A stretch of 64,000 nt of DNA, from the NCBI GenBank assembly GCA_045533195.1, contig JAZSHI010000024.1, forward strand, positions 448 through 64,447. The letters run 5' to 3'. This DNA is from Acutalibacteraceae bacterium. GTDB taxonomy: Bacteria; Bacillota; Clostridia; Oscillospirales; Acutalibacteraceae. The translations under genes were made by a program, and so were the position numbers. Below are positions 42,699 to 53,691 of the stretch, piece after piece. Each line of letters starts with the position of its first letter. Position 1 is the stretch's first letter. The notes under the pieces are model-generated. The model was not told the DNA's origin and made no database searches. It was given only the letters and a program-made list of their open reading frames with translations.

Positions 42699-42815
42699 AC
42701 AATCAACTCCCAAAAGGACTTAGTTAATTGTATGAGACCAAGCCAAAGAATATACCTCTCGTTAGTACTGCTGCTTGCTAAGTATAAATCTTCAAGCGCT
42801 TTATAGTATTTTTTA

Positions 42816-42983
42816 TTATTTATTCTTTTTATACCAATTCATAAATTCGGCTGTGTTTTCTTTACAGACATAATTTTGATCGCTGTTTAAAAGCTCAATC
42901 ATACGCTTTTCATCATCAGTAGGCTCCTTTTTAGAGTTCAGCGCCTTTATAATGGTTATAATTATTCGAAACAGCAAATTCAT
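42816..42983 (-). CDS. possible 55-aa ORF (not in ORF track)
   Basis: My translation is MNLLFRIIITIIKALNSKKEPTDDEKRMIELLNSDQNYVCKENTAEFMNWYKKNK. RBS is weak. Confidence 0.25.
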   Translation of the reverse strand: MNLLFRIIITIIKALNSKKEPTDDEKRMIELLNSDQNYVCKENTAEFMNWYKKNK

Positions 42984-43218
42984 TTACTGTTTCGACACCA
43001 AATCTTTGATTTGGTCACAAATTTTCAAAGAAAATTTGACTTCCCTGCTTTCAATAAAAAACTACAGCATTCGGTCAAGTCCGAATTTACTGTTATTAGC
43101 ATATCATAATATCCAAAAGTTTTCAATTTAATTATAAAGGCATTTTTATTAATCTTGAATTGCAAATAAAAATATCGTATAATCAAAATTACAGTATTAA
43201 AATTCTTGGAGTGAAATT

Positions 43219-44583
43219 ATGAAGGATAGCAAAGAAATGCTGGGTACTGCGCCGATTGGAAAATTGTTGTTTAAATTAGCGGTGCCGACTGTAATAGCTC
43301 AGCTTATTAATATGCTGTATAACATAGTTGACCGCATTTATATCGGTCATATATCGGGAGAGGGAAGCCTCGCACTTACGGGGGTTGGCGTTTGTATGCC
43401 GATTATTATGATTATTTCGGCATTTGCGGCTCTTATTGCTTCGGGCGGTGCGCCGAAGGCATCCATCCTTATGGGCGAGGGTGACAATAGCTCTGCCGAA
43501 AAAATTATGGGCGGTTGCTTTTCCTTGCAGATTATTATTTCTGCCCTTCTGACCGCCGTTTTGCTTATTTGGAATAAAGATCTGCTTTTAATGTTCGGCG
43601 CCAGCGAAAATACTATAGATTACGCCACCGCTTATATGAACATCTATGCTATAGGCACCGTTTTTGTGCAATTAACTCTCGGTATGGGTGCATTTATTAC
43701 GGCGCAGGGCTATACCAAAATAAGTATGATGACGGTGCTTATAGGTGCTGTCAGCAATATTATTCTTGACCCCATATTTATTTTCGGCTTAAATATGGGC
43801 GTAAAAGGAGCGGCTTTTGCCACTACTCTGTCACAGGCAATTTCTTGCCTTTGGGTGCTTATATTTCTTTTCGGTAAGAGAACCTATCTTAAACTTAAAA
43901 GACATAATTTCCGCATAGACGGAAAACTAATTTTCCCTTGTATTGCCCTCGGAACAGCAACTTTTATTATGCAAAGCAGTGAAAGTGTCATTTCGGTCTG
44001 CTTTAATTCTTCGCTCCTTAAATACGGCGGAGATATTGCCGTAGGCGCTATGACCATACTTACGAGCGTGATGCAGTTTGCTATGCTTCCGATGCAGGGC
44101 ATTGCACAGGGTGCGCAACCGATTTTAAGCTATAACTTTGGAGCTAAAAATACCCAGCGTGTAAAGAAAACCTATAAGCTTTTGCTTATAACCTGTCTTA
44201 TTTATTCCTTTATAATCTGGGGAAGTGTTATGTTGTTCCCGAAAATGTTTGCGGGTATTTTTTCTCCCGACGCTTCGCTCATTGAATTTACCGCAAAGGC
44301 ACTTCGTATTTATTGCGCCGTACTGTGTATATTTGGTATTCAAATTGCCTGTCAGATGACCTTTGTTTCCATTGGCAACGCGCCTTGTTCCATTATTGTT
44401 GCCGTTGTACGTAAATTTATTTTACTTTTACCGCTTATTTACTTAATGCCACAGCTGATACCGAATAAAACGATGGGTGTTTATACAGCAGAGCCCGTTG
44501 CCGATTTTATAGCAGTAACCTTTACCGCCATTCTTTTTGCTTTCCAATTCAAAAAGGCACTAAAGTCCTTATCCGCCAAATAG
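43219..44583 (+). CDS. MATE-family efflux transporter
   Basis: 454 aa with 12 TM helices and N-terminal PIGKLLFKLAVPTVIAQLINMLYNIVDRIYIG. Confidence 0.9.
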   Translation: MKDSKEMLGTAPIGKLLFKLAVPTVIAQLINMLYNIVDRIYIGHISGEGSLALTGVGVCMPIIMIISAFAALIASGGAPKASILMGEGDNSSAEKIMGGCFSLQIIISALLTAVLLIWNKDLLLMFGASENTIDYATAYMNIYAIGTVFVQLTLGMGAFITAQGYTKISMMTVLIGAVSNIILDPIFIFGLNMGVKGAAFATTLSQAISCLWVLIFLFGKRTYLKLKRHNFRIDGKLIFPCIALGTATFIMQSSESVISVCFNSSLLKYGGDIAVGAMTILTSVMQFAMLPMQGIAQGAQPILSYNFGAKNTQRVKKTYKLLLITCLIYSFIIWGSVMLFPKMFAGIFSPDASLIEFTAKALRIYCAVLCIFGIQIACQMTFVSIGNAPCSIIVAVVRKFILLLPLIYLMPQLIPNKTMGVYTAEPVADFIAVTFTAILFAFQFKKALKSLSAK

Positions 44584-44614
44584 ACACTACCCATGTTTAG
44601 CATAGTATATTGTT

Positions 44615-44652
44615 AAAGGCATCACTTCTCTTTTTGATGTGATGCCTTTTTT
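44615..44652 (+). terminator. rho-independent terminator
   Basis: 11-bp stem AAAGGCATCAC / GTGATGCCTTT followed by a T-run. Confidence 0.75.
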
Positions 44653-44730
44653 AATATACTTTTATTTTTCGGTTGCTGTCTATCGGTAACACAAAATCAG
44701 GGTGCTGATTACCGTGCTGAAAAGATTTGT

Positions 44731-44952
44731 TTATGCTTTCATTATACTCATGAAAATCCCAAAAACAATGGTTACAACAATAATAATCAGACACAGCTTT
44801 GCAATTTTTAGCAAAAAAGCAATACCCATTATCCAGGATAAAAGCAACGCTCCTATGGCAAGTATTGCACAGCCAAGAACGATTTTTCCCGTTGCGCACT
44901 TTGCCCAAAGGATTATCAGACCTGCTATAACCAATAAAATCACCCAAAACAT
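44731..44952 (-). CDS. small hydrophobic membrane protein
   Basis: 73 aa with three predicted TM segments. AAGGGGA RBS upstream. Confidence 0.5.
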   Translation of the reverse strand: MFWVILLVIAGLIILWAKCATGKIVLGCAILAIGALLLSWIMGIAFLLKIAKLCLIIIVVTIVFGIFMSIMKA

Positions 44953-44993
44953 ACTCTTTTCCCCTTGCTTACATAAGTTTTATACAATAAGGC

Positions 44994-45041
44994 AAAAAAA
45001 TCCTCCTACAAGTGTATATGTTGATTTTACACTTATAGGAG
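44994..45041 (-). terminator. strong rho-independent terminator ending the WYL-led operon
   Basis: 16-bp stem TCCTCCTATAAGTGTA / TACACTTGTAGGAGGA with one mismatch, then T7 on the minus strand. Confidence 0.85.
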
Positions 45042-45096
45042 GACAAAGGTATGTCTGCCTTAATTATTTAGTTGTCGGCATATTTAATGATTAAAA

Positions 45097-45255
45097 TTAT
45101 TTATTTTCAATTTTCCCCAAGCCGTCGCATTTTGGGCAGTCGATTACCCCATCACCGTGACAATAGTCACATTCTTCTCCGTCTTCATATCCGAAGCCGT
45201 CACAATGAGGACAATCTAATTCACCGCTGCCGCCGCATTTTGAACAATCAACCAT
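45097..45255 (-). CDS. 52-aa DnaJ-type zinc-finger mini-protein, (CxxCxGxG)x4 (not in ORF track)
   Basis: My translation is MVDCSKCGGSGELDCPHCDGFGYEDGEECDYCHGDGVIDCPKCDGLGKIENK. AAGGAG RBS lies 7 nt upstream of the ATG. Confidence 0.8.
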   Translation of the reverse strand: MVDCSKCGGSGELDCPHCDGFGYEDGEECDYCHGDGVIDCPKCDGLGKIENK

Positions 45256-45275
45256 TTTGTGACTCCTTTATAAAA

Positions 45276-45449
45276 TTAATATTTTCTGTTTATAACCCAA
45301 GAATGCGGTTGAGGTCTGCCCAATTTGTTTTTAGGTCTGCGAGAACAACTGCCGGGTTGAGGTCTTCCGAAGTTACTGAGCTGTGTGCTTCTGGCTCCAC
45401 ACCATCTGCACATATACTCAACCTTCATAATCTTTTTTCCTGTAGGCAT
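45276..45449 (-). CDS. 57-aa basic CxxC mini-protein with duplicated GRPQP motif
   Basis: ORF 45276..45458. GAAAGGA abuts the first ATG and is better spaced (9 nt) for the ATG at 45449. Contains CRWCG, FGRPQPGSC and LGRPQPHSW. Confidence 0.6.
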   Translation of the reverse strand: MPTGKKIMKVEYMCRWCGARSTQLSNFGRPQPGSCSRRPKNKLGRPQPHSWVINRKY

Positions 45450-45492
45450 TAAAACCATTCCTTTCTGTTAATATTTTATTGCTTTTTAATTT

Positions 45493-48174
45493 TTAAATAA
45501 GTAAATCTGCAATTATTTTTTCTGCTGATAAGTCGGTTAGTTGTACTTTGTCAACAAATTCTGCAATACCCGAAATTTCACCTACGCAATATTTATATTG
45601 ATGACTTACTGTAAATTCGTTTTCCAAATTAAGCTTAATCTTTATGTTTGATTCAACCGATACCTTTTCGGGAGTTTCCAGCAGCGAACTCACAAGGGCT
45701 TTATCCATCTGTGTTTCAATAGTTTTCTGTCCTAAATTTAAGCTGATTTTCCCTTTTGTCTCGTCATACTCTCCGTAGCTTATTGCGTTTACGGGGATTT
45801 CGAACAGATTAATTAAAGATTCCTTGTTAATTTGTTTTAAGGCTTCGATTTTTTTCTCTATTTCCTTGGCGAGTAAGAAACTTTCCTCAACCTGTTTTTC
45901 TTTTTCTTTCTTCATAGTATCTGCTGTTTCATTTGCAAATTCGCATACATCAGAAACAGCTTTTTTAAACTCCGAAACACCATTTTTTGCCTTTTTCTCG
46001 AAATGCTCGGGAACATCACGAAGGAACTCGTTCATAGTTTCCGACGCTGAAAGAATACATTCGCACCTTTTTGCACACTCTGCATCAATTTTCTGCAGTA
46101 TGTCGGGAAGTCTTTCTTCCAATTCCTTTGCAAAAACAAGTTGCTTTTCTTTTTTATCATTTAATAGAGCAGTAACATTATCAAATAAGTTTTGGTCTAA
46201 TAACGTGGCAAAAAGCAGAGCGCATCTCTCATACAGATTTTTTACTGCAATTTCTTTTGCAATATCCTCATAAACATTCTGAGTCTCACATATTTTCTTG
46301 CTTTCTTTTTCTACATCATATACAATTTCCAATTTTTCGTTAATGATAAGACTGTTTTGGGTGTTATTATAAAACTTAAATATAAATTCTTTGAAGGCAT
46401 CGTAATCCAACTGCATTGCTGCAAGAAAAACCGCGCCAAAACCGTCGGAAGTTAAAGAATTAAAACAGTCATTTTTGTTTTTTAAGGTTTCTAAAACAGG
46501 GATACTTGTAAATCTTGCGGCGATTAACGGAAGATTTAAGCCGTCTGCATCTATGAATTCTGCGTATTGGTTACTCTGGGTAACCTCTTTAGTATCACCG
46601 TTGATTGCGTAGGTCTTAAGCAATGAGGAAATGGCATTAATCATCCGGTTGTACTCTTCTTCAAGGTGTTCTATGCTACTGCTTACCTCATCAGAATTTT
46701 TATACTTTTCCTCGTCTTTTTTAAGAGAATCCAGCAAAGAACGGCTTTCTATATACTTGAATTCCAAAAGAGCAAGATTGATTTCTGCACAGCGAACATC
46801 AAAGGAGTCCTTGACTTTTTTAGCATCTTCAATTAATTTATGCGCTGTATCGAATTTACCTACTTGCATATAATATACAGCTTTACTGTAGAGATGTAAG
46901 CAATATTCGTCAAGATGCTCATTTTTGTGTTTTTCCACCGTATCCTTCAAGCAATAGCCTAAGGCTTCATCACTTGCAATTTTTGTGTAAAATTGGCTAA
47001 GCTCATAAATTTGACTGTATTCGTATTGCTTAAGCAAAAGCTCAACGAGAATTTTAAACGCCTCTGTTTTTTCTTTTACGAGCTCATCAGGAGCGCCGGA
47101 AATGGCGGCATTTACTGTGTCAGACGCACTTTCTAAAGAGTCATGCTTCTCAAACATTTTCGCCATATTTATGCTTTTTTCAATCCATTCTCTTTGTTCC
47201 TTCAAATAACGCTGATATAGAGTTTCTCTTAGTTTTTCAACAGTTTTCAACCGATTTTCTTTTTCAGAAGAACTAATTAGGTTATGCTCATATAATTCGT
47301 CTATGGTTGCTTTGGCTAAATCAGGCTTCTCGGCTTTCAGCTCAATCTCAAGCTTTAAATTGTAATATTCTTCTTTTACGTCATCTGAAAAATCATCTCT
47401 TATTTCCTGATTTTGCAGTAAACCAAGAGCACCCTTTAAATTGCTTTCTTTTTCAGCCTTTCTCGCCTTTTCAACGGCTGCTTTTAAATCAGCAAGGTCT
47501 TTTGCATAGGTTTCACGGAAATTTGATATAGCTTCTTTTGCAGTCTCGATAAATTCCTTTGCATTGTCGAAGGAAGCGTAAGAAGCTTCATACATATTTA
47601 AAAGCTCCTCTGCTTTATCCATATTTTCAAGATATATGTAGGCTTGAATATAAAGAGCGCGGTAAACCATTAAATCTTCAAAAGAGGTATTCCTTTCGTA
47701 TCGCTTTTGTTTATCCAGTAATTCAAGGTAATTCTCAATATCGCTTTCGTTTGAAAGTGCTTCTCGGAGTTTATTTATGTCGATAGGATCACCAAGTTTA
47801 TGCAAATTATATATTAATTTACCCACACCTATTGCGTAGTTCGGAGATTTTCCGTTGACTGTAACGTTATCACCCTTTAAAGACACGTTGCTTTTTAAAA
47901 GTTGGTCATAGGTTATACTCTCAATCACTCCAAATGACCGCCCGTATATTTTCTTGTCTGTAAAACAGGTGCCATCTTTTGCAGAGCCAAAAAGGGTAGA
48001 GTCATACAAAGCATACACCGTTTCTGTATTGGGAATATTCATATAATATTTGGCGTTTTGCAGTTTCTTTTCGGGGATTGTATTAAAATAATAGCTTATA
48101 CCGCTATACTCTTTGAGCACTTGTTTAACATCATCAATCATAGTGCCTGTTGATTGTTTATTTGTTTCAGACAT
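45493..48174 (-). CDS. 893-aa protein: putative N-terminal membrane-proximal module plus long helical/TPR-like region, no enzymatic motif seen
   Basis: AAGGAGGG RBS 5 nt upstream. N-terminal IPEKKLQNAKYYM...VYALYDSTLFGSAKDGTCFTDKKIY. The remainder is rich in K, E and L. Confidence 0.85.
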   Translation of the reverse strand: MSETNKQSTGTMIDDVKQVLKEYSGISYYFNTIPEKKLQNAKYYMNIPNTETVYALYDSTLFGSAKDGTCFTDKKIYGRSFGVIESITYDQLLKSNVSLKGDNVTVNGKSPNYAIGVGKLIYNLHKLGDPIDINKLREALSNESDIENYLELLDKQKRYERNTSFEDLMVYRALYIQAYIYLENMDKAEELLNMYEASYASFDNAKEFIETAKEAISNFRETYAKDLADLKAAVEKARKAEKESNLKGALGLLQNQEIRDDFSDDVKEEYYNLKLEIELKAEKPDLAKATIDELYEHNLISSSEKENRLKTVEKLRETLYQRYLKEQREWIEKSINMAKMFEKHDSLESASDTVNAAISGAPDELVKEKTEAFKILVELLLKQYEYSQIYELSQFYTKIASDEALGYCLKDTVEKHKNEHLDEYCLHLYSKAVYYMQVGKFDTAHKLIEDAKKVKDSFDVRCAEINLALLEFKYIESRSLLDSLKKDEEKYKNSDEVSSSIEHLEEEYNRMINAISSLLKTYAINGDTKEVTQSNQYAEFIDADGLNLPLIAARFTSIPVLETLKNKNDCFNSLTSDGFGAVFLAAMQLDYDAFKEFIFKFYNNTQNSLIINEKLEIVYDVEKESKKICETQNVYEDIAKEIAVKNLYERCALLFATLLDQNLFDNVTALLNDKKEKQLVFAKELEERLPDILQKIDAECAKRCECILSASETMNEFLRDVPEHFEKKAKNGVSEFKKAVSDVCEFANETADTMKKEKEKQVEESFLLAKEIEKKIEALKQINKESLINLFEIPVNAISYGEYDETKGKISLNLGQKTIETQMDKALVSSLLETPEKVSVESNIKIKLNLENEFTVSHQYKYCVGEISGIAEFVDKVQLTDLSAEKIIADLLI

Positions 48175-48185
48175 TTTTACCCTCC

Positions 48186-49184
48186 TTACACAGCCTCTAG
48201 ACGTGCAATATACTCTTGTCCGCGCATAAGACTTTCCATAGATTTTTCTTCCAATTCGCCTTCCTCATTAAGAAGGGATGTATCTATTATGGCTTTTATG
48301 GTAATTGCAAGTTGAACACAAGCGTAAATGGATTTCCTTTCTTCATCACTATATTTGCTGTAATCCTCGCCGGATGTATTGATAATATCACACATATTAT
48401 TAACAGCGCATACAAAGAATTGATTCAGTATTTGTAAAATTCCGTTTAACTGACTTGCTCTTACCATTATTCCGTTAAGCACAATGCAGGTACTAAGCAC
48501 TTGCTCGTTAAGTGTCTGCGCCCGTAAATATTCGGATTCGGCATCATTAAATTTTTTCTTTGCCTGACTAGCAAAAATAGAGCCTGCAAGAGAAATTACC
48601 GAACCAACATTTAATCCTTTAAGCACCGCGGCTCCGCCTGCCATACCCAAACCTCCGGCAGCCTTTGCGCCTCCGCCCAATAAAGCTAATGCGTGTTTAG
48701 ATGCCGCCGCACCGGCTAAGCCGCTATGGGTAACGGTACGCAAAACAACGGCTTGTGTACCTTTTGAAACGAGACTTCCGATAGCAATTGAAGCGGCTCC
48801 GCCCATTGCGAGATCTTTTGCTGCAATGGCGGCTTCTTTTATTTCAAGAATTTCTTGTTTGTGTTCGGTGAAATGTTTTAATTCATTAATTCCTTCGGTT
48901 TCCTTGAAATTGACATTTTTGATTCTTTCAAAATTGGTCACAAAATCACTCATACTTTCTGCAAGTATATGGATTTTGGTGTCGGCAAACTTTTCCAGCC
49001 TGTCCATTGCTCTGTTATTGGCATTTTCCATATTTTGTTTTGCGGTATCAGAAAGCTGTTCTGCCTGATTTTTTAGCTCTTTGGCAGTTGAAAGATCGTT
49101 AGCTCCGTCAACACCCTTCTTGACACCATGGGCAGCAGAAGCAATTGATATTGCGCCGAGTATTAATGGAATAAATATTGGCAT
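48186..49184 (-). CDS. 332-aa helical protein with N-terminal hydrophobic helix and central Gly/Ala-rich amphipathic segments
   Basis: AAGGGGG RBS. N-terminus MPIFIPLILGAISIASAAHG. Central AMGGAASIAIGSLV...GLAGAAASKHALALLGGGAKAAGGLGMAGGAAVLKGLNVGSVISLAGSIFA. Confidence 0.85.
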   Translation of the reverse strand: MPIFIPLILGAISIASAAHGVKKGVDGANDLSTAKELKNQAEQLSDTAKQNMENANNRAMDRLEKFADTKIHILAESMSDFVTNFERIKNVNFKETEGINELKHFTEHKQEILEIKEAAIAAKDLAMGGAASIAIGSLVSKGTQAVVLRTVTHSGLAGAAASKHALALLGGGAKAAGGLGMAGGAAVLKGLNVGSVISLAGSIFASQAKKKFNDAESEYLRAQTLNEQVLSTCIVLNGIMVRASQLNGILQILNQFFVCAVNNMCDIINTSGEDYSKYSDEERKSIYACVQLAITIKAIIDTSLLNEEGELEEKSMESLMRGQEYIARLEAV

Positions 49185-49199
49185 AATATAACCCCCTTA

Positions 49200-50549
49200 T
49201 TAAAATTCTAATACTAAAGAATCGTCCATCATAAATTCGTCGAATTCTTCAAAGTTTTTAAACTGAATGGTTCCTCCAACTTCAGCGGTTATGGTATTTA
49301 ATGCCGAAGTTAATAAATCTATATTATTGGTATCTAAGGCTGTTGCTAAGGAAATAAGACTTTCTTTGAAAACCTTTTGACGTTTTTCCGACTCAATAAA
49401 GGTGCTGTTAAGAAGAAATTCTCTTTCCTCTTTTATAACATTTATAGCCTCTTGAGAGAGAACTCTGATTTCATTCAGACGTTGGGATGAGACCATTTCC
49501 TCCTCAAAAACATTCATAGCATACTTATATAATTCGCTGTAAACTGCTGTTACGATTGTGGAAGATGCCGCTTGCGTTAAAGCCGCCGCTACCCCCTTCA
49601 TACCCATTGAAAGAGAAATAGACGTACCGATGGAAGTACCCCACGCCTGTGACACCTGAAACAAACCGTCCTGTCCGATTTTAAGGAAAAACTGTGTATC
49701 TGTGATTTCACCGTTAATATATTCTTTAAAATGCTCCTTGACGTTTTCTGCCGTTGCTGTCAGCTCATTTAAGTCAAGATATTTTGAAATTTTCAGCTTT
49801 TCGCAGGCTTTGACTATGTAGTCATTAATTGCTTCTTTAGATAATTCACCGACTTTTTGAGTGGCTGCCTCGGTTAAAGACATTTCTCCGTTAATTAAAT
49901 TTTTGGCAGTATCAATAGCCTCGCCTGAAATACCGAATTTTTCGGTTGCTTTTGAAACAACACCGTCAATAGCCTTATGCTTTATTTCGTCCACCGTTTC
50001 AGTAACAGAATTTTCGATTATCTCTTGAGCAGACATACTTCCGTCTAAAAAACCGTGTAGATTTTCAATTCCCTTGTTTAAAAGCGTTTGTGTCGAATCG
50101 GTTGCAAATAAATCCGCCTTTTTAACGGCATCAGTCTTATATTTTTTACTTTCAAGTTTTTTGTGTTTTTGTGCGAAAGAGTCGGAAACATTTTTCTGTA
50201 TTCTGTCGCACAACATTTCCGGTAAAACTTCTTTGGTTTTTGACAGCACTGCGTTTTTTGAAATTTCTAATGCTTCACTTATATTTGCATCTTCATTCTC
50301 AATACCTTCCAGTCCGCTTGAAAGACCTGCATATACAATAGAGTATATACCGCTTTTTATATCTGAGGATTTACTGTTTTCTTGGTTACTGTTAAATGTA
50401 TCATAAAGTTCGTCAACCTTTTGGTGTACTGCGGATGCAGTCGCTTCCTTTAAGGATGATTTTTCTTCAACCATTTGGGCGCCGCCGTTTATTAATACAC
50501 AAATAACCTCGGATAAAGCATCTGTATCTATTTTTGAATTAATTTTCAT
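49200..50549 (-). CDS. 449-aa helical protein with one Gly/Ser/Ala-rich hydrophobic hairpin
   Basis: GAGGTGA RBS. Hairpin region AWGTSIGTSISLSMGMKGVAAALTQAASSTIVTAVY is flanked by long predicted helices. Confidence 0.85.
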   Translation of the reverse strand: MKINSKIDTDALSEVICVLINGGAQMVEEKSSLKEATASAVHQKVDELYDTFNSNQENSKSSDIKSGIYSIVYAGLSSGLEGIENEDANISEALEISKNAVLSKTKEVLPEMLCDRIQKNVSDSFAQKHKKLESKKYKTDAVKKADLFATDSTQTLLNKGIENLHGFLDGSMSAQEIIENSVTETVDEIKHKAIDGVVSKATEKFGISGEAIDTAKNLINGEMSLTEAATQKVGELSKEAINDYIVKACEKLKISKYLDLNELTATAENVKEHFKEYINGEITDTQFFLKIGQDGLFQVSQAWGTSIGTSISLSMGMKGVAAALTQAASSTIVTAVYSELYKYAMNVFEEEMVSSQRLNEIRVLSQEAINVIKEEREFLLNSTFIESEKRQKVFKESLISLATALDTNNIDLLTSALNTITAEVGGTIQFKNFEEFDEFMMDDSLVLEF

Positions 50550-50577
50550 ATAATCACCTCGTGTTTTTGAAAGAATA

Positions 50578-51552
50578 TTACTGATTTGAATAATTATTTA
50601 TAATCTTTTCTGCTTCCTGACGAATGCTTTGAGCAAATTCCTTTGGGCTTATTACCGTTACCCATGCGCCCTGACTTAAAATCCACATTTTAATGCCGTC
50701 GCCATAGGTTTCGGCTTCTATTAAGTATTTGTTTGCTCCTGTTCGTTCAATGACTTTGGCGGTGGGAAGCTTATCGAGAACTGCCTGAACCGACGGGCCG
50801 GAAAATTCAAATCTTATTTTACGAAGTTTGCCGGGCCACATAAAGAGACTTCTTTTGCGAAGTAATCCTTCGTCGAAGTCGCGGAAATCATCATCGCAAA
50901 ATTTCTTTCGGTGTTCGATTATATTCTTTATTCTGTCAAGGCGGAAATAATACGGTTTTTCCGTATTGCCCTCACACACAAAGGCGATTAAGTAAAAATA
51001 ATAATCGGTGAACATAACCGAGGCAGGCCGCAGACGGTGTGTAACCCATTTCCTATCCATTCGGTAGTATTCAATTGATATTTCCTTTTTCTCGGTAATG
51101 CAATTAGTAATCTGCCATAGTCTATCCTGCACACTTGCACAATCGTGCTTAACCTCGGGGTAGTGATACAGCTCTTTTCGGATAAGCTCTGCAAGATTTG
51201 TCTTATTGTCACCCGTAGTAAAGCGCTTGAGCTTATTGATAAGCGTTAAAAGCTCATCCCTTGAAAAAGCGCGCGCCCCTATTATAACCTCCACAAGAGC
51301 AAAAAGCTCTTTATTGCTTAAAAATTCATCCATAAAAAGATGATAACATTTATTTTTATGTGAGTATTCCAACTCTGTGTTACCCACAAGTTCACGATTA
51401 TCAGAGAGAAACGCCTTTAAATCGGCAATGTTTCGGCTAACGCTTTTGGTAGATACGCCGTATTCGTCAGCGAGTTTCGAGACCGATATGTCTTCACCTC
51501 GAAGAGCACGGAAGAAAATCTCCAAAATTCTGTACTGCTTTGTGTTTTCCAT
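50578..51552 (-). CDS. HTH-WYL-WCX transcriptional regulator (BrxR/CapW/PafBC-like architecture)
   Basis: ORF 50578..51585, likely ATG at 51552. N-terminal HTH (YRILEIFF...VSKLADEYGVSTKSVSRNI) and WYL-like core ISIEYYRMDRKWVTHRLRPASVMFTDYYFYLIAF. Confidence 0.8.
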   Translation of the reverse strand: MENTKQYRILEIFFRALRGEDISVSKLADEYGVSTKSVSRNIADLKAFLSDNRELVGNTELEYSHKNKCYHLFMDEFLSNKELFALVEVIIGARAFSRDELLTLINKLKRFTTGDNKTNLAELIRKELYHYPEVKHDCASVQDRLWQITNCITEKKEISIEYYRMDRKWVTHRLRPASVMFTDYYFYLIAFVCEGNTEKPYYFRLDRIKNIIEHRKKFCDDDFRDFDEGLLRKRSLFMWPGKLRKIRFEFSGPSVQAVLDKLPTAKVIERTGANKYLIEAETYGDGIKMWILSQGAWVTVISPKEFAQSIRQEAEKIINNYSNQ

Positions 51553-51600
51553 TTTTTTAATCCGCCTTTGTAACTTTAAAATCATTTTATAAAATTACTC

Positions 51601-51616
51601 GGACATACTGTTGTCC
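51601..51616. promoter_or_regulatory. palindrome GGACA-N6-TGTCC between the leader terminator and the WYL-gene RBS
   Basis: Perfect 5-bp arms. The same GGACA/TGTCC pentamers form the outer ends of the leader hairpin (51695..51803). Confidence 0.4.
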
Positions 51617-51629
51617 CATAAAAAAACTA

Positions 51630-51663
51630 AAATAAAAAATGCGCAGCCGAAGAGGCTACGCAC
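51630..51663 (-). terminator. intrinsic terminator inside the 5' leader of the WYL-led operon
   Basis: Minus-strand GCGTAGCC-TCTTC-GGCTGCGC followed by ATTTTTTATTTT. Confidence 0.7.
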
Positions 51664-51806
51664 GAAAATCATACCCTCTGCTGTTTAAGGTTGCTGGACA
51701 CTTAAATTAAACTTTGTTGCAAAGTCAGCCAGCGGGTATGGTTTTACCATAACCGGTTTTGCAACAAAAGATTAAAATAAACCGATTTTAACTTAAATGT
51801 CCAACA
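51664..51806 (-). ncRNA. candidate structured leader RNA (three-tier ~110-nt hairpin)
   Basis: Arms 51790..51803 and 51695..51708 (GGACATTTAAGTT / AATTTAAGTGTCC). Inner arms TTGTTGCAAA / TTTGCAACAA. Apex GGTTATGG-TAAAA-CCATACC. Confidence 0.45.
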
Positions 51807-51811
51807 TAGTG

Positions 51812-51840
51812 ATTATAACATAAACACTTTTATTTGTAAA
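51812..51840 (-). promoter_or_regulatory. sigma-A type promoter (TTTACA-N17-TATAAT)
   Basis: Minus-strand hexamers at 51835..51840 and 51812..51817. The predicted start site falls at the 5' arm of the leader hairpin. Confidence 0.65.
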
Positions 51841-51947
51841 TCTATTTTATTGCTAATTTTCAAAGGTGCAATTGTACTAAAGAAATATCGGTTTTGTTTT
51901 TTCTTTAGTGAAAAGCGACGATTTTATATTATGTTAAATAAATATCA

Positions 51948-51976
51948 TTGCTTTTTTATTTTTACTGTGATATAAT
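51948..51976 (+). promoter_or_regulatory. pckA promoter (TTGCTT-N17-TATAAT with TG extension)
   Basis: Hexamers read directly from the sequence, about 110 nt upstream of the pckA ATG. Confidence 0.6.
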
Positions 51977-52086
51977 AACCTCATAATTAGGGAGAATATG
52001 GCTTTGCTGTTAAAAATTCCCCATTGCCCAAAATTTTAAAAGGGCAAAATTATGACAATAATATATTTAGGAAAGAGGTAATTTTT

Positions 52087-53691
52087 ATGAAAAACTTAGA
52101 TTTAAGCAAGTATGGCATTACCGGTGTAAAAGAAATAATCCACAACCCTTCTTATGAAGAGCTTTTCGCCGCTGAAACCGATCCTGCTCTCGAAGGCTTT
52201 GAAAAAGGTCAGGTAACCGAGCTTGGCGCGGTTAACGTTATGACCGGTATCTACACAGGTCGTTCCCCCAAAGATAAGTTCATTGTTATGGATAAAAACT
52301 CTAAGGACACTGTATGGTGGACTTCTGATGAATTCAAAAACGACAACCATCCCTGCAGCGAAGAAACCTGGGCAGTATTAAAGGATATTGCAACTAAGCA
52401 GCTTAGTGAAAAGAAGCTTTACGTTGTTGACGTATTCTGCGGTGCAAACGAAGACTCAAGAATGTCTATCCGTTTCATTATGGAGGTTGCTTGGCAGGCT
52501 CACTTTGTAAAGAATATGTTTATTAATCCTACCGCTGAAGAGCTTGAGAAATTCGAACCCGATTTCGTTTGCTACAATGCTTCCAAAGCAAAGATTGAAA
52601 ACTTCAAGGAATTAGGTCTTAACTCTGAGACCGCTTCTGTATTCAACATTACTTCCAGAGAACAGGTTATTCTTAACACCTGGTACGGCGGTGAAATGAA
52701 GAAGGGTATGTTCTCTATGATGAACTACTACTTACCTCTTAACGGTATGGCTTCTATGCACTGCTCCGCTAACACCGATATGAACGGCGAAAACACCGCT
52801 CTCTTTTTCGGTCTTTCCGGTACAGGTAAAACTACCCTTTCTACCGATCCTAAGCGTCTTCTTATCGGTGATGATGAGCACGGCTGGGACGACAAGGGCG
52901 TATTTAACTTCGAAGGCGGCTGCTATGCTAAGGTTATTAACCTTGACAAAGAAAGCGAGCCTGACATCTATGCTGCTATCCGCAGAAACGCTCTTCTTGA
53001 GAACGTAACCGTTGATGAAAACGGCGTTTGCGATTTCGCTGACGATTCCGTTACCGAGAACACCCGTGTTTCTTACCCCATTGACCATATCGAAAAGATC
53101 GTTCGTCCTGTTTCTGCAGCACCCGACGCTAAGAACGTAATCTTCCTTTCTGCCGATGCTTTCGGTGTACTTCCTCCTGTTTCTATTCTTACTCCCGAAC
53201 AGGCACAGTACTACTTCCTCTCCGGCTTTACCTCTAAGCTTGCTGGTACCGAGCGCGGAATCACCGAGCCTACTCCTACCTTCTCTGCCTGTTTCGGTCA
53301 GGCTTTCTTAGAGCTTCACCCCACCAAGTATGCTGAAGAGCTTGTTAAGAAGATGGAAAAGAGTGGCGCTAAGGCTTATCTCGTAAATACCGGTTGGAAC
53401 GGCAGCGGTAAGCGTATCTCCATTAAGGATACCCGCGGTATCATTGATGCTATCCTTGACGGTTCTATCCTTAAGGCTGACACCAAGACCATTCCCTACT
53501 TCAATCTTGAAGTTCCCACCGCACTTCCCGGTGTTGACAGCGGTATCCTTGATCCCAGAGACACCTATGGCGATGCAGCCGAGTGGGATACAAAGGCAAA
53601 AGACCTCGCTTCCCGTTTTGTTAAGAACTTTGATAAGTACACCGGCAATGATGCAGGTAAAGCACTTGTTGAAGCAGGTCCCGAACTTTAA
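52087..53691 (+). CDS. pckA: phosphoenolpyruvate carboxykinase (ATP)
   Basis: ORF 52024..53691. ATG at 52087 follows AGGAAAGAGG. Kinase-1a motif GLSGTGKTT and typical PckA sequence. Confidence 0.93.

Follow-up and report, generated by a model that had tools for sequence, protein, structure and literature searches.

The Bunzi system, formed by BnzA and BnzB, is reported to protect against phages; its authors suggest a role in membrane surveillance and report that BnzA holds a TerB domain (Millman et al., bioRxiv 10.1101/2022.05.11.491447). The mechanism was again called unclear in a 2025 preprint (10.1101/2025.09.30.679545). The present analysis deals with p893, a protein of 893 amino acids (aa) encoded in a 64,000-nucleotide stretch of the genome of an Acutalibacteraceae bacterium (contig JAZSHI010000024.1; this whole stretch is referred to as the window). 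Its gene belongs to a cassette of seven genes, all on the minus strand and separated by short gaps, which also encodes a WYL-type regulator, the proteins p449 and p332, and the mini-proteins m60, m52 and m73 (Table 1). p893 is a Bunzi-type front end on a giant scaffold, attached to the core of the candidate system PDC-M09.

BnzA (PADLOC PDLC03833) and p893 begin with a homologous domain of ~90-125 residues, hereafter called the module, and both are encoded together with a Gly/Ala-rich membrane hairpin and a family-less protein of ~450-500 aa. A WYL regulator, as in the p893 cassette, is also found in some Bunzi relatives (L018 and L052; L-numbers designate fetched homologous loci, G-numbers genomes and P-numbers protein relatives, L016 and L024 being the same record). 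However, BnzA has ~550 aa and carries a transmembrane (TM) hairpin, together with the reported TerB domain, in the same chain, whereas p893 has no TM segment and continues instead for ~770 aa through a solenoid, a coiled coil and a beta domain. A further difference lies in the partner, p449 showing no similarity to BnzB.

Also among the closest known systems are the TPR-sensor scaffolds of bacterial immune and signalling proteins (the STAND-TPR protein 6mfv and the Rap-family protein 4i1a), and the known folds probably closest to the module include bacterial PH domains (3dcx, 3hsa and 3b77; Pfam bPH_1 and bPH_3/YokE-like) and eukaryotic GRAM/GLUE domains. With regard to PDC-M09, p332 matches PDC-M09A over residues 33-301 (E 2.7e-15), p893 and p449 match no PDC model, and most of the PDC-M09A loci examined are devoid of a module protein, a weak one appearing in only 1 of 11 phylum-level loci.

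The BnzA-type module

At the level of sequence, the N-terminal domain of p893 is homologous to that of BnzA. Alignment of the p893 family with 27 BnzA sequences by hhalign gave a probability of 98.2 (E 3.7e-14), pairing p893 residues 16-96 with BnzA residues 7-89 and nothing else, and tblastn with the p893 N-terminus recovered BnzA loci at 39-54% identity. When GTDB genomes were scanned with 16 rows of the module alignment, 77 loci from many phyla, picked through the motif T[VLI]FGSAK[DE]G, were obtained; they make 85 when the loci fetched earlier are added. According to open reading frame (ORF) calls and neighbour clustering, a module protein of ~550 aa is followed at position +1 by a partner of ~500 aa in 28 of these 85 loci; two such pairs were scored by PADLOC, with E-values of 5e-205 and 1e-181 for BnzA and of 9e-209 and 3e-187 for BnzB. 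Other module proteins match only positions ~7-140 of the PADLOC BnzA model.

The possibility that p893 is itself a Bunzi member was ruled out, because it has no TM hairpin, its locus holds no BnzB and it does not match BnzA over its full length. A comparison by hhalign with 27 BnzB sequences gave probabilities of 0.2, 1.5 and 0.1 for the p449, p332 and p893 families, respectively, and no BnzB is recognised in the locus; no similarity between p449 and p332 was found either. In BnzA, the TM region lies behind the module, at residues ~310-375, with Kyte-Doolittle values of 1.95-2.26. A scan for the TerB clan at E<=1 detected none in p893, and the same scan misses TerB in six bona fide BnzA proteins (the best match being DUF533, E 0.25); one BnzA shows a weak TerB-clan signal at residues 163-205, again behind the module.

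The evidence supports the module as a recurring, mobile and portable unit. Among 1.84 billion representative proteins, a phmmer search with p893 residues 1-140 found 630 at E<=1e-3 and 64 at E<=1e-10, and in a local hidden Markov model search of 158 proteins the module was present one to six times in a chain, at either end or inside it. When 47 module proteins were scanned against Pfam, 28 showed no family and 19 carried partners: TPR accompanied by Ank_2 in P0034 and by a double zinc ribbon in P0038, MORN plus a zinc ribbon in P0041, Sel1 in P0021, a protein kinase in P0039, an HSP70/MreB-like ATPase in P0047, TIR in P0052, DUF1232 in P0031, a weak, sub-threshold DUF1848 in P0025, GYF_2 and/or HHH_3 in eight proteins, and the PH-related families of P0011 and P0014 described below. 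The first-pass annotation of this DNA, made from the letters alone, had likened the pattern to an N-terminal unit fused to TPR, J-domain or zinc-ribbon proteins. This was correct as regards the TPR and zinc-ribbon fusions, which are found among the 47 proteins; a J-domain fusion was seen in none of them (0/47). Other large module proteins (973-1615 aa) are, like p893, without an enzymatic domain. Within the class, the module was present in 10 of 401 sampled genomes, and defence genes adjoining module loci include DruA fragments, a type I restriction enzyme, AbiJ and AbiEii.

The module probably has a PH-like fold, several weak lines of evidence converging on it. Its model (residues 1-140, from a 46-row alignment; predicted local distance difference test score, pLDDT, 81.5; predicted template modelling score, pTM, 0.76) shows six strands, with two helices at the N-terminus and one at the C-terminus; the canonical PH-like fold is a beta sandwich of seven strands that a C-terminal helix caps. 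The multi-copy proteins P0011 and P0014 (2/47) pass the Pfam cut-offs for the Vps36 GLUE domain (Vps36_ESCRT-II) and PH_TFIIH via summed scores, whereas only one of 46 single modules touches any PH family (bPH_3, E 0.021). The sole match in a PDB profile search was the PH-like protein BBS5 (E 0.5), the best Foldseek matches were bacterial PH domains (E 0.3-1.3), and the nearest named ESM Atlas clusters were bPH_3 and bPH_1 (0.80-0.86, a lead only). The PH/GRAM-like assignment made at first pass is favoured without being established. The module would be the lipid-interacting domain of BnzA. Because no Pfam or NCBIfam model covers it in the copies scanned, it is a candidate for the definition of a new domain family. 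No description of it was found in the literature on bacterial PH/GRAM/TPR proteins, WYL defence, Band-7 or Bunzi; the supplementary material of the Bunzi paper may give it a name.

The p893 protein

The 893-aa reading frame claimed in the first-pass annotation was confirmed from the ORF list, and the five peptides quoted there were all located in it (IPEKKL at residue 33, ETVYALYDSTLFGSAK at 51, YRALYIQ at 171, YSKAVYYMQ at 429 and DADGLNLPL at 542). A GGAGG ribosome-binding site stands 6 nt upstream of the ATG (48174). Since the nine full-length relatives all start at the position that matches M12, either M1 or M12 may be the actual start. The existence of these relatives (884-926 aa, 37-48% identity, E 7.5e-248 to 1.2e-165, all from metagenome assemblies) indicates that p893 is not a chance reading frame; a tenth, P0028 (999 aa), has an internal insertion of ~100 residues. 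No family above cut-off, and no catalytic family, was found for p893 in Pfam, NCBIfam, PADLOC or PHROGs, in agreement with the absence of a catalytic motif noted at first pass. The full-length family alignment retrieved no relative from genome contigs and metagenome contigs, and in viral contigs the module alone was matched, in two near-identical loci. Among sequencing runs, none of RNA is listed as a source, and two DNA runs contain a small share (0.15-0.19). The p893 family is rare and unannotated.

The description of the remainder as rich in Lys and Glu agrees with a content of 24.3% for these two residues over positions 141-893. The gene is also, as had been said, the largest of the island and the most AT-rich of its seven genes (GC 0.352, in a range of 0.352-0.447), although the window contains a stretch that is more AT-rich still, at 60-62 kb (GC 0.32).

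An AlphaFold2 (AF2) model, which had been suggested as a check, was built from a 10-row family alignment (mean pLDDT 83.4, pTM 0.45) and displays a solenoid and coiled-coil architecture: an alpha/beta domain (11-126), an all-helical part (~128-535), a stretch of partly low confidence (536-620) and a beta-rich end (798-878). The claim of a TPR-like helical remainder is backed by this model and by fold matches, although the Pfam scores stay below the gathering cut-offs (TPR_14, the best match, 16.5 bits versus 23.5; TPR_19, 10.6 versus 25); the TPR-like helical solenoid is accordingly a predicted structure. An ankyrin-like stretch, also claimed earlier, is present as sequence and conserved in the family (invariant D542, G545, L546, A552, F555, F579, G580, L584, A585 and A586), and it matched no Ank family at E<=1 in the Pfam scan. 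Residues 557-573, inside this stretch, have pLDDT below 50, and hhalign of p893 against P0034, which carries Ank_2, aligned the module alone.

Conservation is unevenly distributed along the protein. Mean pairwise identity within the family is 0.66-0.67 for the module core (residues 31-90) and 0.58-0.75 for residues 331-480, whereas it is 0.32-0.35 for the C-terminal beta domain, against 0.62 for the TPR core. This last domain had no PDB sequence match at E<=10 and was barely sampled in the structure search with the whole model. p893 is predicted to be soluble, because no 19-residue window exceeds a Kyte-Doolittle value of 1.14, and it shows no hydrophobic (TM) segment. A membrane-proximal role for its N-terminus, as proposed at first pass, is something that we can only infer.

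Insertion and conservation of the neighbourhood

The cassette is an accessory insertion. In three same-genus genomes (G001, G005 and G011) the distance between the flanks with spoIIID/tRNA-Arg and with pckA is 48-140 bp and, because the flanks adjoin there, ~9.2 kb of the window (~42,740-51,940), holding a MATE transporter gene and the cassette, are taken as inserted. A search for p893 in 18 other genomes of the genus and in 18 others of the family gave no match. The space that separates spoIIID from the MATE gene, on the border of the insertion, holds a multi-copy repeat of ~95 bp (42944-43041); this repeat matches four other G000 contigs and many contigs in most same-genus genomes, with 76-95% identity, and looks like a miniature inverted-repeat transposable element or a repetitive extragenic palindrome-like element.

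The WYL regulator behaves as a portable head for variable cassettes, since its close homologue in the same-genus genome G008 (L101, G008:C32, 10965-11987; 78% nucleotide identity, protein E 1.7e-183) heads wholly different cargo, encoding proteins of 158, 75 (SHOCT-like), 127, 197 and 364 aa. Close WYL homologues head related or different cassettes in L016, L094, L018, L125, L131 and L101.

The order of the genes following the regulator is retained elsewhere. L016, from an Oscillospiraceae metagenome-assembled genome (MAG), shows WYL (82% identity), p449 (48%) and p332 (69%), and then the first 117 residues of a p893 homologue at the contig end; its phage-like neighbours include a dUTPase and an excisionase-like HTH gene. 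In L026, from an Epulonipiscium MAG, a PDC-M40B-like gene, a PDC-M09A gene (a p332 homologue, E 3e-17) and a gene for a 752-aa protein with an N-terminal module occur in the order of p449, p332 and p893, the 752-aa protein sharing the module alone with p893. L125 has WYL, homologues of p449 and p332 (44% identity for the latter), and then a 233-aa protein with a weak module match (E 3e-4). In L018, WYL precedes a gene whose 362-aa product combines the module, a hydrophobic Gly-rich hairpin and a coiled coil in one chain; behind it lies a BnzB-like gene (E 2.4e-26). Thus, the gene directly after the p332 homologue encodes a module protein in the window, L016, L026 and L125. The main argument that p893 works with p332 is precisely that module and membrane hairpin are either fused, as in BnzA and L018, or side by side, as in these four loci.

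The pair formed by the p449 and p332 families is a wider conserved core. p449 homologues flank p332 homologues in L016, L125, L128, L133, L134, L127 and L130, and the 11 phylum-level p332 loci include six with a p449-family partner, one with the PDC-M40B-like alternative and one with a (weak) module protein. Five of the nine p893 relatives share the exact size of their longest contig with a p449 or p332 relative (8124, 15619, 8253, 7514 and 7042), which indirectly indicates that they are on the same contigs. Identities for p893, p449 and p332 are 37, 43 and 66% on contig 7514 and 43, 57 and 79% on contig 8124, and on contig 7042 those of p893 and p332 are 42 and 84%; by these comparisons, p893 is the most diverged component on the seemingly shared contigs. 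Taking into account this divergence and its variable C-terminal domain, p893 fits a specificity-determining subunit better than a conserved effector.

The mini-proteins recur as well. An m60-type ORF (C..CG...C...PH.W) was found in 4 of 87 sources (the window, L001, to which L002 is near-identical, L091 and L094), each time just downstream of a large module protein of differing architecture (893, 1438, 973 and 1615 aa, respectively). A homologue of m73 follows in L001/L002, and a weak one in L094. A third cassette type (L002, 249-4208; L094, 580-3691) starts with WYL and an IetA-like AAA ATPase (E 2.6e-36 and 9.5e-33) and continues with two small genes that belong to no family and with a Sel1 protein; the module protein (1438 aa in L002, 1615 aa in L094) and the mini-proteins come after these.

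Other contexts of the module were observed. In L020, L022 and L023, short module proteins (226-314 aa) are encoded in operons with Band_7/SPFH proteins ending in double zinc ribbons, which constitutes a second recurrent context besides Bunzi. In two of four Epulonipiscium loci (L027:5417-6373 and L028:5659-6612), a PAS-GGDEF diguanylate cyclase, and not PDC-M09A, is directly upstream of the ~750-aa module protein.

Proposed function and alternative explanations

It is proposed that p893 is a soluble, non-enzymatic sensor or adaptor of a mobile, WYL-headed, membrane-acting candidate anti-phage cassette, related to Bunzi by domain, a proposal whose chances we consider even. Through its PH-like module, p893 would be recruited to the membrane or to p332, the protein with the Gly-rich hairpin; this targeting is suggested by the fact that BnzA and the 362-aa protein of L018 carry module and hairpin in one chain. 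The conserved TPR core would hold the invariant partners, and the fast-evolving C-terminal part would read an infection cue. The p332/p449 pair would then perturb the membrane, leading to an abortive-infection-type outcome, while the WYL regulator would keep the cassette repressed until a stress signal arrives. An HTH-WYL-WCX regulator does stand at the head of the operon, as in WYL-regulated defence cassettes, regulation by it being putative here. Further hints of defence are the module fusions, which include TIR and protein kinase, and the membership of p332 in the PADLOC candidate family PDC-M09A. The idea of a sensor or scaffold, already put forward at first pass, is plausible and has gained an anchor in the identity of the module with the N-terminal domain of BnzA.

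Several observations weigh against this proposal. The predicted function of the p893 family rests on computation, the fold assignment of the module is weak, and PDC-M09 is listed by PADLOC as a candidate system only. No recognised defence gene lies beside the cassette in the window, where its neighbours are the MATE transporter gene and pckA. p893 matched none of the PADLOC families at E<=1, nor BnzA over its full length (~544 positions). The partners were also compared with the Bunzi proteins, and no homology could be shown: for p332 against BnzA, BLASTP found nothing and hhalign gave a probability of 8.9 for a match of 15 columns in the hairpin only, and for p449 against BnzB nothing was found (hhalign probability 0.2). 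The linkage of p893 relatives to p449/p332 relatives through contig sizes is indirect. Among 50,697 phage records there was no homologue, and plasmids gave only two weak Priestia matches (29.8% identity over residues 28-175). The module is also encountered in non-defence contexts, with PAS-GGDEF and YibE/F genes (L027 and L028) or a Na/sulfate symporter (L072), and beside the Band-7/zinc-ribbon proteins of L020, L022 and L023. Finally, close relatives of the module are over-represented among the 77 loci, since these were selected through a motif.

As an alternative with no part in immunity, p893 may act in envelope stress or membrane maintenance; it would tether p332/p449, a pair then serving to repair or organise membranes, to sites of damage or curvature, much as PspA, flotillin or dynamin-like housekeeping systems do. 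Module proteins with Band_7/SPFH and double-zinc-ribbon proteins make up three of eight class-level loci (L020, L022 and L023), p332 and BnzA both match the stalk/paddle of the dynamin-like LeoBC (E 2.4e-5 over positions 367-524 for p332; ~1e-5 for BnzA), and the cassette has no nuclease, protease or NADase according to Pfam, PADLOC and NCBIfam. However, a maintenance function fits poorly with an accessory, inserted cassette whose p893 occurs in 0/18 same-genus genomes and whose module occurs in 10/401 genomes of the class, or with a WYL head whose close homologues head variable cargo; moreover, the sole characterised system with the module is anti-phage. Such a role is thus considered unlikely. 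Attention may also be drawn to m52, whose two DnaJ-type CXXCXGXG fingers would be in keeping with p893 being a hub similar to a TPR co-chaperone, which together with m52 and m60 would handle the folding or insertion of hairpin proteins without sensing anything. The module protein P0047 is fused to an HSP70/MreB-like ATPase, and TPR solenoids commonly dock C-terminal peptides, such as might be provided by the invariant tail of p449, similar to that of the PDC-M40B-like protein of L026 (E 0.008, probability 5). However, this tail similarity is not significant, m52 matches its Pfam model below the cut-off, none of the 47 representative matches shows a J domain, the cassette contains no Hsp70 gene, and the high divergence of p893 relative to its partners would be unusual for such an adaptor, all of which makes this explanation very unlikely.

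It might even be thought that p893 is itself the effector, its coiled coil and solenoid assembling into a lattice that coats or sequesters membrane, with p332/p449 as mere anchors. Its long antiparallel coiled-coil hairpin and large solenoid, its being the largest protein of the cassette, and the fact that the other large module proteins also lack enzymatic domains would agree with this idea. Effectors are usually the conserved parts, whereas p893 is the least conserved component, and the p449/p332 pair is widespread without any p893-like gene, six of the 11 phylum-level loci having a p449-family partner but no module protein; an effector role is therefore regarded as highly improbable. Returning to the sensor or adaptor proposal, a bolder extension can be formulated. 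The BnzA-type module would be a very widespread and so far undescribed PH-like reader of membrane state, plugged by bacteria and their mobile elements into TIR, kinase, HSP70-like, giant Sel1/TPR and hairpin pore-former outputs, p893 representing a new class of giant, enzyme-free immune adaptor. In it, the module would provide the coupling to a conserved membrane effector made up of two proteins, p449 and PDC-M09A, the hypervariable C-terminal domain would recognise the invader, and the zinc and membrane mini-proteins m60 and m73 would serve large module proteins as obligate cofactors in systems that are unrelated in other respects. Taken jointly, these statements are speculative and rather unlikely to hold in full.

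Other features of the cassette

Table 1. Features of the p893 cassette (positions refer to the window).
Feature	Residues of p893	Position	Strand	Evidence and remarks
Best sigma-70-like promoter match upstream of the WYL gene		51812..51840	minus	TTTACA-17-TATAAT plus extended TG; 11/12 consensus matches
WYL-type transcription regulator, head of the cassette		50578..51585	minus	Pfam WYL 3e-8, WCX 7.8e-6, HTH_11 9.2e-6
p449, family-less partner of p332, with invariant acidic/hydrophobic C-terminal tail		49200..50549	minus	No Pfam/PADLOC/NCBIfam family; 15 relatives
p332, membrane protein of the PDC-M09A family, with N-terminal TM helix and Gly/Ala-rich hairpin		48186..49184	minus	149 relatives
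p893, 893-aa protein		45493..48174	minus	ORF list, 9 full-length relatives, AF2 model; start ATG
p893: BnzA-type N-terminal module, alpha/beta, PH-like fold (favoured)	12-126	47797..48141	minus	Invariant core IP.KK..N...D.T.FGSAK.G, including D58, T60, G63 and K66
p893: TPR-like alpha-solenoid	128-535	46570..47793	minus	Residues 331-480 are the most conserved part of p893
p893: conserved two-repeat 'ankyrin-like' stretch	536-620	46315..46569	minus	Sequence conservation; predicted fold partly of low confidence
p893: long antiparallel coiled-coil hairpin, helices 661-719 and 723-781	621-791	45802..46314	minus	Model
p893: small C-terminal domain rich in beta strands, the region that varies most within the family	792-893	45496..45801	minus	Model strands 798-878
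m60, 60-aa zinc-knuckle mini-protein (C..CG...C...PH.W)		45276..45458	minus	Motif shared with other module loci
m52, 52-aa mini-protein with two DnaJ-type CXXCXGXG zinc fingers		45097..45255	minus	DnaJ_CXXCXGXG E 2.3e-5 and anti-TRAP RtpA E 4e-8, both below cut-off
m73, 73-aa fully hydrophobic membrane mini-protein		44731..44952	minus	Hydropathy up to 3.01; homologue in L002

The hydropathy of p332 reaches 1.95 at residues 1-21 and 1.1-1.5 over residues 117-206. In p449, the last 15 residues (F..FDEFM.DDS..LEF) are near-invariant and resemble the C-terminus of the PDC-M40B-like protein L026:47-1738, with the non-significant hhalign values mentioned above; both tails may be a shared docking peptide. 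Homology between p449 and this protein was considered and rejected, the resemblance being confined to the tail.

m73 is 47% identical over 70 aa to the product of L002:9439-9660 (E 1e-15). Its frame overlaps another one on the same strand (44651-44947), which would encode a Cys/His-rich protein of 98 aa, and a homologue elsewhere (L002) exists only for the 73-aa frame. Upstream of the cassette in L016 there is a gene for a 301-aa protein (L016:2296-3201) which, judged by eye, seems to comprise a zinc ribbon at the N-terminus, a bacterial-PH-like middle and a SHOCT-like end, and which has no PADLOC match.

As for putative control signals, promoter-like sites are no more numerous in the cassette region than in shuffled sequences, and the promoter listed in Table 1 is thus a consensus match only. 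A strong terminator-like hairpin of 10 pairs, six of them GC, followed by a T-run (51639-51663, minus strand), lies between that match and the WYL start and could be an attenuator. A search of positions 44300-52100 against Rfam gave no match at E<=0.1.

Significance of the locus

The locus indicates that the front-end domain of BnzA is separable from the membrane hairpin and can be joined to a large protein-binding scaffold. The module, which lends itself to study as a soluble domain, gives a handle for dissecting Bunzi-type sensing; at least 630 representative protein clusters contain it, next to a wide range of partners. The split arrangement, in which a module protein is encoded beside a hairpin protein, predicts a specific interaction between them. 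In addition, the locus ties the orphan PADLOC candidates PDC-M09 and PDC-M40, as well as a recurrent pair of mini-proteins, to the same theme.

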